The notes under the pieces were generated by a model, which saw only the letters and a program-made list of their open reading frames with translations, was not told where the DNA came from and searched no databases. The position numbers were made by a program, and so were the translations under genes. A DNA stretch of 64,000 nt from a virus (taxonomy: Duplodnaviria > Heunggongvirae > Uroviricota > Caudoviricetes). Below, in pieces: positions 6,612-52,452 of the stretch; the first letter of the stretch is position 1, and the number at the start of each line of letters is the position of its first letter. Where the stretch lies: IMG/VR virus record IMGVR_UViG_3300042303_000041, positions 6,648 to 70,647 of that record; one strand, 5' to 3'.

Positions 6612-6870
6612 GATTCTTCTTTAGGTAATACTCAGCTGCCTTAATGACTTGTTCCAAGTCAGCATACTCTTTGGTTTTCTTATTGTAAAGTTTCCAGATG
6701 TTGGTGTTAGTGACCTTTGGATCCATCTTGTCGGAAAACTTATCCAAAAACATACTGAAGAATTTATCAAGCCGCATTTTATCAACAACAAGTGACTGAT
6801 ATAAACTAACAAGTTTATTGGTGTCACCATAAGTCGATGCATTAACAAGTTCATTATAAGATGTGTGCAT
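6604..6870 (-). CDS. Hypothetical protein
   Basis: Tightly packed ORF. Confidence 0.6.
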   Translation of the reverse strand: MHTSYNELVNASTYGDTNKLVSLYQSLVVDKMRLDKFFSMFLDKFSDKMDPKVTNTNIWKLYNKKTKEYADLEQVIKAAEYYLKKNHV

Positions 6871-9098: not shown

Positions 9099-9593
9099 CT
9101 ATTGATATTTTATTACTTTGAACAATGTCATTGGATTGTTGGCAAAAATGTCAGTCCAAACTTTTCTCCAATTTCTTATAAACCTCATATCACTCTTGTC
9201 TTCTTTACTTATAATAATGTCTGTGGTTGATTCTGTAGTATCAGCAAAAATAGAATCACATCCCCATATATCTATCTGAGCACATCCGATAGTAAGAAGA
9301 TAGTTTGCTGCATAGTGAGCAGCATTAAACCAATCTCTTGGTTTAAAAACAGCTAAGATGGTGTACTTGTCTTCAATCTTATATTCTTTCATCTTAGAAT
9401 AAACTTTAGTGCTAACAATCATGGGGCATGTTATAGCCTCTGGATTGTTTTTCAATATAAAAACAATCTCTTCATCGCACACTACAGTAGCATCAACACT
9501 AAATTCACCTGGAAAGTTACAGCCAATGACAATATCACCAGAACGATTATATGCAGATTTGCTTGGACCATTACCTAAAACAATACCTAACAT
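9099..9593 (-). CDS. Putative glycosyltransferase-like (GNGPS motif) protein
   Basis: VLGNGPS...IGCN...WGCDS. Confidence 0.5.
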   Translation of the reverse strand: MLGIVLGNGPSKSAYNRSGDIVIGCNFPGEFSVDATVVCDEEIVFILKNNPEAITCPMIVSTKVYSKMKEYKIEDKYTILAVFKPRDWFNAAHYAANYLLTIGCAQIDIWGCDSIFADTTESTTDIIISKEDKSDMRFIRNWRKVWTDIFANNPMTLFKVIKYQ

Positions 9594-9610
9594 CTAGTTT
9601 CCTTATTAGT

Positions 9611-9796
9611 GGTAGGTTATTCTGTTACGAGGAAACCTACCGAAACCCTAAGCAGCGTTTAGGCTGCTAATGCGTAGACTGTGTCGTTTGCATTTACTTC
9701 TTTTGCTTCTTCGACCGAGTTTCCCCAATCCTACGGGTTTCACATTCCCGTGTTGCCGTCTCTACTATCTACCTCTGTCGAAACCAAGGCACCCCC
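9611..9796 (-). ncRNA. ssrA: Two-piece tmRNA, coding piece (tag ANDTVYALAA*)
   Basis: 5' GGGGGTGCCTTGGTTTCGACAG; tag frame 9691-9659 GCA AAC GAC ACA GTC TAC GCA TTA GCA GCC TAA. Confidence 0.93.
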
Positions 9797-9797
9797 A

Positions 9798-9956
9798 TCA
9801 TAAAGATTTTATTTTTGTAACGATGTCATAGACTTTTGAATAAGTGTCAGTTATTTTATCTAACTGCTGTTCTGATAGTGATTCATTTTCTTCCAAATGA
9901 ACCAAATCTTTTGCTAGATGTTCCTGTAACTCTTTCAATTTATCCTGCTCATCCAT
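9798..9956 (-). CDS. 52-aa ORF filling the tmRNA intervening segment
   Basis: AAGGA SD; MDEQDKLKELQEHLAKDLVHLEENESLSEQQLDKITDTYSKVYDIVTKIKSL*. Confidence 0.6.
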   Translation of the reverse strand: MDEQDKLKELQEHLAKDLVHLEENESLSEQQLDKITDTYSKVYDIVTKIKSL

Positions 9957-9966
9957 ACAATCCTTA

Positions 9967-10033
9967 TGGTGGAGGTGGCGAGAGTCGAACTCGCGTCCAG
10001 AAGTCCTTCGCTTTGAAGGGATTACAACAATTC
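9967..10033 (-). ncRNA. ssrA: Two-piece tmRNA, acceptor piece
   Basis: T-arm GCGAG-TTCGACT-CTCGC then CACCTCC-A-CCA pairs with GGGGGTG (G3:U70); ACTTCTG pairs with CAGAGGT of the coding piece. Confidence 0.93.
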
Positions 10034-10034
10034 C

Positions 10035-10244
10035 TTATAAGCCACCGTTGGGTTGAGTTGCTTTCACAAGCATTACTCTACCGCTACCGTTGACCTGTAA
10101 TTTAAACATGTCTCCATCTTTCCATCCTTTAGGTAATGAACCCCAAATTCGATCAGGTTTCTTTTCCTGCGATGCAAGATGCAATTCTTCATCAAACAAA
10201 ATATATCCATCTTCAAGATCAAAATTATAATCGATGTATAACAT
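10035..10244 (-). CDS. Hypothetical protein
   Basis: ORF track, start trimmed to MLYIDY. Confidence 0.55.
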   Translation of the reverse strand: MLYIDYNFDLEDGYILFDEELHLASQEKKPDRIWGSLPKGWKDGDMFKLQVNGSGRVMLVKATQPNGGL

Positions 10245-26867: not shown

Positions 26868-27242
26868 TCACCTTATAGCTTTGGCTCTACTAGTAATCAT
26901 GGCATCCAATTCACCCTTGTCCATTACATTACTATACGTATCTACATAACCCGAGGCATGGTCAGTTACACGATTATCGGCTTCATGATATGTGCGAATG
27001 CGCTCATTACCTGCAAGATATCGTTCTGTATCCTTATGATAGTGAGCCATTACCCTTGATATGCATGTGCTATATGCAGCTGCTCGATTATCTTCTCGGG
27101 ATCTAGAATTAGTTCCATTTGCCTGAATACCAGTTGGCTCATGAATGCACCTGCAGCAATTCTGGTGTTTGTTACGATGTTGCCCACCCTTACCAGTTCC
27201 AGAGAACCATTCGTATCTAAATTGATCTGGAGTTATTTTCAT
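26868..27242 (-). CDS. Peptide-chain-release-factor (GGQ) domain protein, ArfB/PrfH-like
   Basis: FSGTGKGGQHRNK...HEPTGI...RSREDNR...RIRTY. Confidence 0.88.
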   Translation of the reverse strand: MKITPDQFRYEWFSGTGKGGQHRNKHQNCCRCIHEPTGIQANGTNSRSREDNRAAAYSTCISRVMAHYHKDTERYLAGNERIRTYHEADNRVTDHASGYVDTYSNVMDKGELDAMITSRAKAIR

Positions 27243-28779
27243 TATTCCACCATAAACTCGCATCCACATGCAGATGATAACATAGCATCCAATGACGAAT
27301 TAGCATCGATTGGAGGTACTTTATATTCTCTAAACTCCGTACCTTTACGGCAAAGAGTGCAGATATAATTGTATAACTCAGCTTTGCATTCGTCTTCAGT
27401 GGAGAATTCTTTCTCCCATCCAGGCATGGATAACTTAATTAGTTGCATTCTTGTTCCTGTTTATTAATCCCAGTTCTTTTTTATCGCCGTAATCTTCATT
27501 CCAATCATAACCAGCAAAGTATTCTTCAATCTCTTGCTCGGTCATATTATTAGATTCAATGCGAGGTGCATGGCCAGTGCCATTTGGATATTTGTGTGGA
27601 TCACGACCACGATCATAATAGGAATCTGCAGAGCCACGATCAAAGGGAGAACCATGACGCACATAGTAATTACGACCATTGTATTCTACTGTATACATAT
27701 TATTCTCCAATAATAACCAATTCAGGAGACCAAACATGAATATCTGATGCAGTAACTGCGTTTTGATATTCTTGGTTCATTGCCATATCAACCAATGCTT
27801 CTTGGTTTGGCAAGGCTTGTAAGATGCGGATCAATTCCGCTACAGTCAATTGGGTTTCCATTTTATATTACCTTAGTTGAAGTAAGATTCTGCAGCAATT
27901 TCGGCAGCACGTTCTTGCGCATCGATGTCGCTAGCAATCTGATCGATGATGATTCGGCAAGCCTCGCGAGGATAACCTGATTTCACCATAAACTCTGTAA
28001 TCACGTCGTAGTTGACGCAATCGACAACCATCTCAACAACCTCAGCATGCAACTCACTCATAGCAGACATTTCAGTTCCTTTTCGTTTCATCATAGTAAT
28101 GATTATACCATAGATCCGAATTAAAGTAAAGCCCCTCAGATCTGTAGGGGATTAGTCACTCCCAGGTGTAGCCACTGTAAGTGCTATCAAAGTGTGACCT
28201 AAACTCATGGCTGTCTCTAGGAGCAGAGGCAGCTGCAACACGACGGATTTCGGCAGCGTGTTTTGCCATAGCTCTCATTTGCTCGGCATGACGGATCATT
28301 GCAAAAACACCTTCCAATCCACTACGTTCATATGTCAAGTGGTACTCAACAGCTTCTTCAATGTTGCGAGGATAGATTTCTTTGGTAAACCCTTGGAAGG
28401 TACCAATTTTAGAGAGGAAGTCCCATGCAGATTCTTTGCTAGCAAATGTCATCTCACCAGACTTGGTAATTACGGTGTATCTTTCAGTCATTTCAATCTC
28501 TCTTTCATTTCAGTATAACTTATTATACCGCTGGGACGAATTAAAGTAAAGACCCTCAGATCTGTAGGGTTACCAGCTGGACTCGTCCACTATCGTCTTA
28601 GTGACGTCTACCACAGTACCATTTAAAGCAATTCCAGAGATTTTGGCAGTTATAATAGATCCAATACCAGAACTATTATCAGAGATAACTTCCACTACAT
28701 CACAGCCATTGGGAAATGCTTTTAGAAACTGCAGTAATGTTTCTAAATCATCTTTATGTAAGTAAACTTTATTCAGCAT
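27242..28779 (-). other. Array of small early hypothetical ORFs with two promoter cassettes (28103-28152, 28522-28571)
   Basis: ORF track plus repeated promoter motif. Confidence 0.55.
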
Positions 28780-49134: not shown

Positions 49135-49843
49135 TTACTTTTTCAGAGAGACGTTGGCACGTAAGAAGCCACCAAGCAGAATAATAGCTGCCCATGTTTC
49201 AATGGTATATCCAATCGCTAGAACAGGGAACAACGTATTCAGTGCCCAAATTGATAGCAGTGGTCCGATGATAATAATTACAGCGAGAAAAACTACAAGT
49301 CCTAAAAATTTAATCAAGTCCATATTAAACTCCAATAGTGAATTGTTTTACAGAGTCCCAGCGGAATGAACGCCATTCTTGTTTCTCAAGATCGAAAACT
49401 CGGAGTGCGGATCCAGCAGAATTGGAATCTTCTTCTGATTCGGTCTTTGGTTGTTTGTCAACTGGGATGCTTCCTGAGAAAAGGGTACATTGCATTTCCC
49501 TTTGCGTCCCGTCTTTCTTTGTGAAGACGACAGTGCATCCTTCTGGAGAAGTGCGCAGATTTTCGAGTGCCCATGGTTTGAGTTCATTGAATCTCTCATC
49601 GTTAGTTTGAAGTTTTTCCGTCATAATTATCTTTCAAGTGATTAACAAGTGGTAACATCATTTCTTTAAAATTAGCAACAGAAGGATACATTCTCATGTC
49701 TGATTGCTCGACAACAAACCCTTCTTCGTCTAAGACTCTTCGAGAAATAGTAAATTCAACCATGCCATACTGCAACTCTCTGATTGAGAATGTAGTAGAA
49801 ACATCGTTGATAGAATAAATTGAATGAAAGTCAAGGTTACTCA
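49135..49843 (-). other. Three small ORFs (membrane 49135-49335; SH3-like 49325-49624; 49602-49843)
   Basis: FTKKDGTQREM...VFD..K.EWRSFRWD in the middle ORF. Confidence 0.6.
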
Positions 49844-49971
49844 TATAGATCCTTTTTGTGTTTAGGCTTACGTGTGAATGCAATCTTGCTGTCAACTACA
49901 CGCATACGGTACTTTGGAGTACGCAAGTCCTTAGCAACAAGGTTCTTAGGTTTATTATACTGTGTTTTCAT
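49837..49971 (-). CDS. ArfA-like alternative ribosome-rescue factor (44 aa)
   Basis: Manual: MKTQYNKPKNLVAKDLRTPKYRMRVVDSKIAFTRKPKHKKDLYE*; aligns by eye with ArfA N..A.L..P.FRQRV..K...Y.RK.KH. Confidence 0.65.
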   Translation of the reverse strand: MKTQYNKPKNLVAKDLRTPKYRMRVVDSKIAFTRKPKHKKDLYE

Positions 49972-49978
49972 TTTATTG

Positions 49979-50251
49979 TCAACTAAAAATTCCAGACCAT
50001 TGCTGGAGTTTGTGATACTTTTCTTGTTTTGCAGTCATCACTGCAGCTTCGCTAACTACTCCATGATCGATAAGCAGATCAATCATACACATGAGATCTC
50101 CGATTTCTTCTTCTAAGTGTTCTCGATTTGCAATCTTTGTAACTGGATGGCAGTCATCCATACCAAAGCGAAAAACCTTACTAATTGCCTGAGAAACCTC
50201 AGCGCATTCCTCTTGTGTAATCAACAAGATTTCTTTATCAATATCACCCAT
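49979..50251 (-). CDS. MazG-like NTP pyrophosphohydrolase
   Basis: TQEECAEV..AISK..RFG...LEEEIGDL. Confidence 0.8.
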   Translation of the reverse strand: MGDIDKEILLITQEECAEVSQAISKVFRFGMDDCHPVTKIANREHLEEEIGDLMCMIDLLIDHGVVSEAAVMTAKQEKYHKLQQWSGIFS

Positions 50252-50388
50252 TACATTTCCTAAACTTAGTCTATATTTATTAACATCATCAACCATCCAC
50301 ATAGCTATTTTACAACAAAGTCAAATAAAAGTCAAGTAAATGTGAAAATGCCCCTATTGTTAGTAGGGGCATCTTGCAAGCCTTGTGT

Positions 50389-52452
50389 TTACTTGCTTGT
50401 AGCTCTATAAACTCCATCCCAATCTTTAGGTAAGTCCTTTGCCTTCATTTCTTCGCAACGTTCAATCCATAGTTCGTAGTAGTGGTCCATTTCTCCAAGG
50501 AATTTACCATTCAATTGTTTGCAAAGTTTAATAGCGGCATCAAACTTTTGCAATCTATACAGTTGCAACATCTTTTCATGCTGTTGTGTTTCTATAACAT
50601 ATGATGAATTTTCCATCCACCAATCATGTCTACCCAGTACTGTATAAACGTGGATGCCTTCTTTCTTCCCTTTAACTGCAATGCAATCAAGTTCTAGAGT
50701 TGCATATTCATCTTCAACTTGTTTATTGGTATTTGCACCAATAACAATCTTAACACCGTAAGGTTTACTCTGACCTTCTAGTCGTGCTGCGAGATTGACA
50801 CCATCACCAAGGCAAGTATAATCAAAACGTTGACTAGACCCCATATTTCCAACCACAACAGTATCAGTGTTAATACCAAGACCCATACCAAATGCAGGAA
50901 CACCTTCAGCGGTAACTTCTTTATTAAACGCATCTAAACTACCCATCATTTCTAGTCCAGTCTTTACTGCCATTTTTGCATGGTTCGGTTCGTCCAACGG
51001 TGCATTCCAAAACGCCATTTGTGCATCTCCAATGTATTTGTCAAGTGTGCCATTATTTTCTATAATCTTGGCAGTCATTGCTGTCATATATCTATTCATT
51101 ATTTTTGTGAGTCCTTGCACATCTTTTCCATAGTGCTCAGAGATTGACGTAAACCCTCTAACATCGGTGAACATGATTGAAAGCTCTCGTGATTCACCAC
51201 CAAGCTGTAGTAATTCAGGATTTCGCTGCAACTTTTCGACCAATGCGGGAGAGAGGTAGGTTGCAAACTGTTTTTTGATTTGGAGTTTTGCTGCGAGTTC
51301 AACAAGGAATTTGACAACGTAGCCGTGGAAAGAGACAAGGGTAATGGTAAGTATCGGGAACACAGCATCAACCAGATAGCTTGATCCAATGAAGAGGTAA
51401 TAGCTGCCGAAAAAGGATCCTGCGGCAAAGATGATTGAGAAGATGTAGCCATGCTTGAACCTTGTTAGTAGTAATGTGATGATACAAATTAGTATCGTAT
51501 ATAAAAGTTCAACGCCATCTGCCCAATCTGGACGACTGATGTTACTTCCGCTTGCAACTGTGTCTAGTACAGAGGCTTGCAAGTAGTGCGGGTAGACTTC
51601 ACCTCTTGCTGTAGATACTGGGTTGTTGAGCCCTCGCCCTGTAATTCCGACGATGACGATTTTACCTCCGAGATCCTTTGGCAAATTTGCCAAGGAGTAT
51701 TCGGTTGGTCTGGATGACCAATCCACCCAGACTCTACTGTCACCGTCTGTTGTGATTTTTCCAAAGGCTGGAACTCTAACTGCTTCGATGGAGCCTTCGT
51801 TAATTTTAACTTGGAAGGAAGGATCTCCTGCGGCGACACGCAAGGTTTCAAGAGAGATACTTGGGTATAACTTTCCGTCGATGTTGATAAGCATGGGAAC
51901 TCTGCGGATGACGCCATCGAGTTCAGGGAAAGTATTGACAATACCAATGCCAGCAGCGTTTTCATTAACAGACCTCACATTCGAAAGAATTGATTGAAAT
52001 TTGATTCCAGGATCACCTTCGCCTATAATCGATACACCAGGTCGAAATGGTATCTGTGTTACGGAGTCAGTTATCTGATCATTTACTGCAGTATGCGGAA
52101 ATACTACAGGGTGTTGTTTTAAAATAGCGCCAAGTTTAGAATCTTGACCAAAGCGATCACTGTCAGGAAGGAAAACGTTAAAAACAACCAACCCAGCACC
52201 ATTCCTATAAAGAGTATCAATAATGGTGGCATATTCTCCACGTGGGAAAGGAAATTGTCCTTTTTGTCGAATAGTTTCGTCATCTATGTTTACCACAGCG
52301 ACTTGTTGGGACACCGTGCTTTCTTTTGAAGTTATCAGTTGATCGAAATAACGTAGTCTTATCGATTCAACGAATGATGGATCTGCAATGCGAATAGAAA
52401 TTAGTAACACCAGAGTAAGTAATGCCATCCATGGTGATAGTAATCTTTTCAT
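50389..52452 (-). CDS. CHASE2-domain adenylate/guanylate cyclase (class III)
   Basis: N-terminal CHASE2, 3 TMs, FTDVRGFT, DKYIGDA, GDGVNLAARLE. Confidence 0.93.
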   Translation of the reverse strand: MKRLLSPWMALLTLVLLISIRIADPSFVESIRLRYFDQLITSKESTVSQQVAVVNIDDETIRQKGQFPFPRGEYATIIDTLYRNGAGLVVFNVFLPDSDRFGQDSKLGAILKQHPVVFPHTAVNDQITDSVTQIPFRPGVSIIGEGDPGIKFQSILSNVRSVNENAAGIGIVNTFPELDGVIRRVPMLINIDGKLYPSISLETLRVAAGDPSFQVKINEGSIEAVRVPAFGKITTDGDSRVWVDWSSRPTEYSLANLPKDLGGKIVIVGITGRGLNNPVSTARGEVYPHYLQASVLDTVASGSNISRPDWADGVELLYTILICIITLLLTRFKHGYIFSIIFAAGSFFGSYYLFIGSSYLVDAVFPILTITLVSFHGYVVKFLVELAAKLQIKKQFATYLSPALVEKLQRNPELLQLGGESRELSIMFTDVRGFTSISEHYGKDVQGLTKIMNRYMTAMTAKIIENNGTLDKYIGDAQMAFWNAPLDEPNHAKMAVKTGLEMMGSLDAFNKEVTAEGVPAFGMGLGINTDTVVVGNMGSSQRFDYTCLGDGVNLAARLEGQSKPYGVKIVIGANTNKQVEDEYATLELDCIAVKGKKEGIHVYTVLGRHDWWMENSSYVIETQQHEKMLQLYRLQKFDAAIKLCKQLNGKFLGEMDHYYELWIERCEEMKAKDLPKDWDGVYRATSK

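Follow-up and report, generated by a model that had tools for sequence, protein, structure and literature searches.

A short gene at positions 49837-49971 of the window, a 64,000-nucleotide stretch of DNA from a virus of the class Caudoviricetes (IMG/VR record IMGVR_UViG_3300042303_000041, positions 6,648 to 70,647), encodes a strongly basic ArfA-superfamily peptide of 44 residues that most likely acts as the ribosome-rescue factor ArfA does, with an estimated probability of about 0.6. Judged by sequence, the protein is a divergent branch of the superfamily, outside Pfam ArfA as that family is now defined. An earlier note on this DNA had reported the open reading frame (ORF), its basic character, its absence from the list of ORFs made for the window and an alignment with ArfA, made by eye, in which the GKG segment of ArfA was missing. 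The alignment is reproduced by both hhalign and HMMER, and the missing segment appears there as a gap of three residues. The ORF is indeed absent from the list, which reflects a length cut-off only.

Homology to ArfA

Four independent lines of sequence comparison show homology to ArfA, despite the failure of the Pfam ArfA model to match the protein. A profile of 101 diverse family members (A2) was searched against 177,635 distinct PDB sequences and matched six ArfA chains only (E 0.006-0.02), the next match having an E value of 0.9. When A2 was aligned by hhalign with Escherichia coli ArfA alone, P was 1e-4, and with a canonical ArfA alignment (A3) the probability was 92.5% over 39 columns (P 4.9e-7). 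A3 holds no bridging sequences and consists of seven enterobacterial proteins, three other proteobacterial proteins (which pass the ArfA cut-off) and two phage ArfAs annotated in GenBank. The enterobacterial and phage sequences were added because a scan of 300 genomes from the class to which a Marinobacter genome belongs gave only three proteins with Pfam ArfA, too few for a diverse set, and probably an undercount given a very short model.

The sole Pfam match of the window protein is DUF7230 (PF23876), at 20.8 bits against a gathering score of 27 bits (E 4.4e-4, 34 of 42 model positions), and homologues about 80% identical to it carry a precomputed DUF7230 domain. Scanned one by one with Pfam, 72 of the 101 relatives match DUF7230 and 11 match ArfA (best E 3.5e-5). 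The two families are joined by graded intermediates, namely chromosomal proteins of 35-40 residues from Pelagibacteraceae with an N-L-I-A-K-D-L-R-S-P-K-Y-R core and a K-K-G-K-G-S-F-K-R-K-K tail. The bridging proteins of 35 residues from SAR11 score 30-32 bits with Pfam ArfA, where the gathering score is 25.5 bits, and 45-46 bits with the hidden Markov model of the family. Both E. coli ArfA and the window protein match the same short ORFs of Ralstonia phage RsoM2USA and of Roseobacter phage CRP-212, and in P0320, a member of the family, K-K-G-R-G is inserted where the gap falls. A search of the PDB with the window protein as a single sequence gave no match, and PHROGs returned only unannotated weak families, for the window protein and for ArfA alike. 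A match to FlgB in NCBIfam was set aside as chance; NCBIfam also gave nothing for E. coli ArfA.

Several ArfA-like sequences were noticed in public records in the course of these comparisons. The ORF in RsoM2USA (L064:1507-1629; MG752970.1 ~111842-111964, minus strand) is unannotated, encodes 40 residues with an AKDLR core and a KKKGKGSF tail, and lies under a hypothetical coding sequence, RsoM2USA_176, annotated on the opposite strand. The ORF in CRP-212 overlaps the annotated gp38 gene, for a protein of 1203 residues, in another frame. In Salmonella phage Arash (OQ632216.1, 57961-58062), a sequence 65% identical to the core of E. coli ArfA is annotated as 'ribosomal protein L2', which by its sequence is probably a mis-annotation. 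The module also occurs in fusions, at the C-terminus of P0346 (180 residues), at the N-terminus of P0342 (135 residues) and in P0337 (119 residues), and in a Ktedonobacterales genome (L044:3995-4222) it is followed by a Cys-rich segment.

Evidence for a real gene

The ORF is a real gene, and the description of it in the earlier note as a basic ORF of 44 residues is borne out. The identical protein was called by gene callers on 21 public contigs, a word-indexed search found 162 close homologues, and a profile search of 1.84 billion proteins found 717 representative clusters (50% identity) at E ≤ 1e-3, with 75 at E ≤ 1e-10. In IMG/VR, at least 564 contigs encode a relative. Among 43 distinct DNA variants, codons 10-26 vary almost only synonymously, with up to six synonymous codons per site; the residue is fixed and four codons are used at A13, five at L16, six at R17 and four at P19. 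This purifying selection is strong enough on codons 10-22 to rule out an internal start at M23 as the source of the sole product. The family core reads R-N-[PL]-[VI]-A-K-D-L-R-T-P-K-Y-R-x-R-V-V-x-S-K-K-x-Y-x-R-K-x-K-H, and the window protein contains 14 Lys or Arg and one His against four acidic residues.

Residues retained from E. coli ArfA

The roles of individual residues in ribosome-bound E. coli ArfA were taken from Demo et al. 2017 (PMC5378476). The A-site segment P19-K-Y21-R-M-R-V25 of the window protein aligns with P23-L-F25-R-Q-R-V29 of ArfA. Within it, P19 matches P23, which packs on A1492/A1493 (PMC5378476), and Y21 matches F25; R22, R24 and V25 fall at R26, R28 and V29, which belong to the strand added by ArfA to the sheet of RF2. 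The proline, the tyrosine and both arginines of the segment are at least 90% conserved across the family. The second retained region corresponds to the ArfA tail in the messenger RNA (mRNA) channel, where F32-T-R-K-P-K-H38, including the KH motif, aligns with Y39-M-R-K-G-K-H45. The KGKGS motif, which in E. coli ArfA is reported to be non-essential yet to contribute to activity, is present in the bridging relatives from SAR11, RsoM2USA and CRP-212 and in P0320.

Bacterial members of the family

The DUF7230 branch is large and common in phages, and it is a chromosomal single-copy gene in most of the SAR11 genomes searched. In the order of SAR11 genome G001 (Pelagibacteraceae), one copy is found in 76 of 101 genomes (75 of 100 if genome G388 is excluded). 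A third gene with an RF-1 domain was found in none of the 101 (none of 100 without G388); these genomes have RF1 and RF2 only, hence no ArfB was found. Gene calls in single-cell SAR11 genomes include the gene, with an ArfA domain precomputed for it. Its gene order is conserved, near dapB, dnaJ and dnaK and with a 4-nt overlap with the end of a Trans_reg_C gene (L054:4414-5108, L056-L058); the overlap with that stop codon suggests translational coupling of the 35-residue gene. Because it is single-copy and near-universal in streamlined genomes without ArfB, the gene would fit a back-up rescue factor.

A Micavibrio chromosome and an alphaproteobacterial genome of 1.5 Mb, which carry the GKG-less type, likewise have RF1 and RF2 only, and no canonical ArfA was found in them. 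In a published survey, arfA was found in 0 of 2,376 Alphaproteobacteria genomes (PMC11633108), and the DUF7230-type branch seems, from the sequences described here, to have been overlooked by it. Chromosomal homologues in the gammaproteobacteria Marinobacter and Saccharospirillum (L040:3968-4123, L041, L029, L030) keep D-L-R-[ST]-P-K-Y-R-x-R-[VI], differ in the N-terminus and have no KH. A complete Marinobacter genome has no canonical ArfA and has a third RF-1 domain gene, probably ArfB.

tmRNA and the GGQ protein

The earlier note had proposed that the ArfA-like gene completes a set of three ribosome-rescue routes, together with a transfer-messenger RNA (tmRNA) and a protein with a GGQ motif taken as an analogue of ArfB. 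Two of the three parts stand. The tmRNA is found by ARAGORN and by Rfam (tmRNA_permuted 123.4 bits, cut-off 47; beta_tmRNA 102.1 bits, cut-off 84), and the ArfA-like protein by profile comparison and bridging proteins. No SmpB gene was found in the phage genome, so the tmRNA would depend on SmpB from the host. The ArfB analogue is weaker, since the GGQ protein is RF1-like and has no basic tail. Its best PDB matches cover residues ~191-318 of RF1, that is domain 3 and the next strands, and no ArfB, YaeJ or ICT1 chain is among its 43 PDB matches (E ≤ 1e-3). Its C-terminal 30 residues are not basic, and it has neither a tail of the ArfB type nor a codon-reading domain. By sequence, then, the protein is a tail-less release-factor domain 3 and not a member of the ArfB family; it could possibly act independently of codons, as ArfB does.

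The ArfA-like gene co-occurs with tmRNA in related phages. Among 11 related records, the longer ones that carry the gene, a permuted tmRNA is found in six and an RF-1 domain gene in one; in the relatives rated at least 90% complete, the counts are three of three and none of three. Therefore, the conserved set comprises two routes and not three: tmRNA and mini-ArfA are the trait of the lineage, and the GGQ gene is an occasional extra. The strong selection against translation-stalling host defences that the earlier note had read into the set is plausible as a hypothesis.

A promoter embedded in the gene start

A perfect match to the sigma-70 consensus promoter (Table 1) overlaps the start of the ArfA-like gene, such that the ATG (49971-49969) falls within the spacer and the -10 box forms codons Y5-N6. 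A terminator-like stem-loop lies directly upstream of the promoter, at the end of the MazG-like gene. The arrangement TTGnnn, exactly 17 nt, TAnAnT is found in 37 of 38 distinct IMG/VR relatives (range L075-L154). In the relatives the -10 box is always in frame, forming Y-N or Y-T codons 18-27 nt upstream of those for A-K-D-L, and the conserved 'YN' of the protein probably reflects constraint on the promoter. The relatives include a group with TTGACA and another with TTGCTT, which resembles the T4 Mot box and is accompanied by Shine-Dalgarno-like sequences and by a start codon in the spacer.

Transcription from the embedded promoter is predicted to start at ~49947, within the ORF at codon 8-9, so its transcript cannot encode the conserved N-terminal core, a core that is clearly translated, judging by its synonymous codon variation. 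Since the start codon is inside the conserved promoter, the full message must derive from a promoter upstream. A site with 10 of 12 matches at 50335-50307 may serve for full-length mRNA, in which case the embedded promoter would serve the downstream genes. A leaderless mRNA made from the embedded promoter was rejected as a general rule, given that there is no start codon at that position in the window or in many relatives; some relatives have an ATG exactly 7 nt past the -10 box. A second 12/12 sigma-70 match lies at 50795-50822 on the plus strand, antisense within the CHASE2 cyclase gene.

Proposed action and alternatives

By analogy with ArfA, residues S28-K40, a basic tail at the C-terminus that includes F-x-R-K-x-K-H, would test the channel by which mRNA enters; this channel should be vacant only when a ribosome has stalled at the 3' end of a broken message. 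In the A site, P19-x-Y21-R-x-R-V25 would line up as a beta-strand against a class-I release factor and hold that factor in the open form. The GGQ loop of the recruited factor would free the peptide without a stop codon, and the ribosome would be recycled. Together with the phage tmRNA, a mini-ArfA of this kind would raise the capacity for ribosome recycling during infection. Because the gene ends in an ordinary stop codon with no hairpin, unlike E. coli arfA, tmRNA should not repress it, and with its own stop codon the protein would act alongside tmRNA and not only upon tmRNA failure. More speculatively, the benefit to the phage may lie in non-stop messages that arise during infection. The mRNA of the host is broken down when T4-like phages infect, and among host defences there are several that cleave tRNA or mRNA; ribosomes would be loaded onto non-stop messages through either.

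Several observations weigh against an ArfA-like action. The search against Pfam ArfA (PF03889) that the earlier note had proposed as a check came back empty at E ≤ 10, both for the protein of 44 residues and for the whole 168-kb phage genome. The KGKGS motif is interrupted in every alignment, by the gap at K34-G35-K36 of ArfA. In E. coli, an N-terminal hydrophobic minidomain of ArfA (I11, A18, L19, L24, F25) contacts Trp319, Val198 and Phe217 of RF2 (PMC5378476), and this patch is mostly lost in the window protein, with A18 replaced by K14, L19 by D15 and L24 by K20. All three replacements are invariant in close relatives; of the minidomain, only F25 is retained, as Y21, and L20, as L16. The control of E. 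coli arfA through a non-stop mRNA is missing, given the TAA after codon 44 and an overlapping next gene, and no significant structure was found when the RNA of the region was folded (z-score -0.76); the stop codon is TAA or TGA in 44 of the 44 relatives listed. The start codon lies in the spacer of a strong promoter, after a terminator-like hairpin. Lastly, a rescue function for the DUF7230 branch is argued from sequence. A complex predicted for the peptide (with its alignment) and SAR11 RF2 scored 0.01, without controls, and counts neither way.

The loss of the RF2 contacts raises the prospect of a peptide that occupies the vacant A site and channel without causing release, and so blocks or competes with host tmRNA-SmpB and rescue factors or parks ribosomes. 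The tail and A-site segment are kept, the residues replaced by invariant charged ones are those that activate RF2 (A18, L19, L24), and the A18T variant of E. coli ArfA keeps RF2 binding and abolishes release (PMC5378476). Such a role is nonetheless unlikely, given that a single-copy chromosomal core in three-quarters of the SAR11-order genomes, in which no ArfB was found, fits housekeeping rescue better and that the phage's own tmRNA argues for promoting rescue. The same loss of most RF2-specific contacts would suit the targeting half of a two-part system, in which the peptide senses the empty channel and recruits the phage GGQ protein instead of host RF2; the GGQ protein, having no codon-reading domain or basic tail, needs a route to stalled ribosomes. 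This arrangement is quite improbable, since an RF-1 domain gene is so rare among the related records and absent from the three complete ones, SAR11 genomes have RF1 and RF2 only, and the beta-strand of ArfA pairs with domain 2 of RF2, which the phage GGQ protein does not have.

It is also very doubtful that the protein is a small basic peptide that binds nucleic acids and has nothing to do with ribosomes, its likeness to ArfA being due to remote ancestry or convergence. Its shortness and net charge of about +10 would agree with this, as would the non-translation genes around it (MazG-like, WYL_2 and CHASE2 cyclase) and the fusions of P0346, P0342 and P0337 with unrelated domains. However, ArfA is the sole PDB match although the PDB holds many basic proteins, the matching positions contact the decoding centre and the mRNA channel, and the graded intermediates carry the KKGKGS tail of ArfA. 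That the ORF is unexpressed, with the DNA conserved as a promoter-terminator cassette and the reading frame incidental, is scarcely credible. The start codon does lie within a perfect promoter, whose -10 box encodes the conserved Y-N residues, but the almost exclusively synonymous variation of codons 10-26 lies 3' of the promoter, bacterial homologues exist without an embedded promoter, and Shine-Dalgarno-like sequences precede the start codon in relatives.

The preferred reading, a rescue factor that acts as ArfA does, can be extended tentatively. The AKDLRTPKY (DUF7230) peptides might form an unrecognised major branch of the ArfA superfamily, present in hundreds of phages and the only back-up rescue factor of SAR11. 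They may activate release factors by a different contact, perhaps with both RF1 and RF2, or with the GGQ protein in the case of this phage. A different contact may apply, given the invariant charged residues that stand in place of the hydrophobic patch specific for RF2.

Genomic setting

The source virus record is 168,097 bp in length, has terminal repeats and is rated complete. The ArfA-like ORF sits within a compact leftward gene block, in the order CHASE2 cyclase, MazG-like gene, ORF, gene for a protein of 80 residues and WYL_2 protein (Table 1). The TGA stop of the MazG-like gene is followed after 7 nt by the ATG of the ArfA-like gene, the 3' end of which is overlapped for 8 nt by the start of the next gene; a Pfam search with the 80-residue product of that gene gave no match. 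Relatives carry genes for a T4-type RNase H and a dCMP deaminase near the locus, with which assignment to T4-like phages fits. A megablast search of GenBank phages with the surrounding 5 kb gave no match. In a close relative (L059:681-5589), genes resembling those for CsgF, CsgG, curlin repeats and FecR come before the CHASE2 cyclase, which is unusual cargo in a phage genome.

Table 1. Features of the window discussed in the text, with positions counted from its first nucleotide
Feature	Position	Strand	Details
Two-piece (permuted) tmRNA	9568..10070	-	ARAGORN 9568-10059, tag ANDTVYALAA
Stand-alone GGQ (RF-1 domain) protein	26868..27269	-	133 aa; Pfam RF-1 55 bits; only copy in the genome
80-aa protein, downstream neighbour	49602..49844	-	Gene calls in related contigs L059-L063
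ArfA-like gene, DUF7230 branch	49837..49971	-	44 codons, ATG start, TAA stop
Sigma-70 consensus promoter, 12/12	49954..49982	-	TTGACA 49982-49977, 17-nt spacer, TATAAT 49959-49954
MazG-like pyrophosphohydrolase, upstream neighbour	49979..50302	-	Pfam MazG 24.3 bits; same order in related contigs
Weak terminator-like stem-loop with T run	49991..50007	-	5-bp stem, 3 G-C pairs; consensus match only
CHASE2 adenylate/guanylate cyclase	50389-52452	-	687 aa, CHASE2 sensor fused to cyclase

Implications and comparison with known systems

If the rescue function holds, a large unnamed family, with its 717 clusters and at least 564 viral contigs, would gain a function, and the reach of the ArfA route would widen from some beta- and gamma-proteobacteria to SAR11 and other alphaproteobacteria. 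T4-like phages would then routinely bring two rescue routes, tmRNA and a mini-ArfA that escapes repression by tmRNA, and ribosome stalling would be a regular bottleneck in infection. A natural minimal ArfA of 35-44 residues with a different release-factor contact would also be a tool for structures of termination independent of stop codons.

Among the closest known systems is E. coli ArfA (YhdL; PF03889; PDB 5MDV, 5U4I, 5H5U and 5MGP), known from beta- and gamma-proteobacteria. Both are small basic peptides, and they share in the same order N-x-[IV], L, P-x-[FY]-R-x-R-V and [YF]-x-R-K-x-K-H. E. coli ArfA has 72 residues, of which about 55 are active, whereas the phage protein has 44 and lacks the GKG, the hydrophobic C-terminal extension, the hairpin and the non-stop mRNA. 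The SAR11 ArfA proteins (35-40 residues, e.g. L021:3998-4102) have a near-identical N-terminal core, N-L-[IV]-A-K-D-L-R-[ST]-P-K-Y, over which identity with the phage protein is 65-80%. Unlike it, they keep KKGKGSF, pass the ArfA cut-off, end in runs of K/R without KH, and belong to the host, where the genes around them are conserved. ArfA genes have been annotated in GenBank and in papers for Citromicrobium phage RXM, pelagiphage HTVC027P, Pseudoalteromonas phage J2-1 and Brevundimonas jumbo phages; g10 of RXM is described as ArfA (PMC8953757), and gp30 of HTVC027P has the Pfam ArfA domain (PF03889) and is reported to be highly expressed (PMC12753301). The ArfA of J2-1 resembles the window protein in that GKG is missing too. 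The annotated phage ArfAs are recognised by Pfam or BLAST; the window protein escapes recognition through its place in the AKDLRTPKY (DUF7230) branch. The Pfam description of DUF7230, its best match there, names no function, the family is not mentioned in the literature searched, and phage records label genes of the branch hypothetical.

Francisella and Bacillus also have small basic peptides, ArfT and BrfA respectively, by which release factors are brought to non-stop ribosomes; neither is regarded in published work as related to ArfA by sequence. The KH motif is common to BrfA and the phage protein; the tail of ArfT reads KKGGSTNKK, and ArfT is one of a widespread repeat family (PMC6514570). 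Neither was accepted as the identity of the phage protein, given that ArfT is of a different repeat family and that neither was matched in any search. ArfB (YaeJ)/ICT1 and the phage GGQ protein are both stand-alone GGQ domains without a codon-reading domain, but the phage protein has no basic C-terminal tail and best matches domain 3 of RF1/RF2. The promoter and stem-loop at the gene start resemble the PeSL/PmSL promoter-stem-loop cassettes of T4-like phages (PMC4122927), which differ in that their start codon follows the promoter. No biochemical test of a phage ArfA-like protein is reported in the literature searched. In short, phage ArfA genes are already annotated and published, and what appears to be new is the link between DUF7230 and ArfA, the altered surface for contact with release factors and the promoter that overlaps the gene start.

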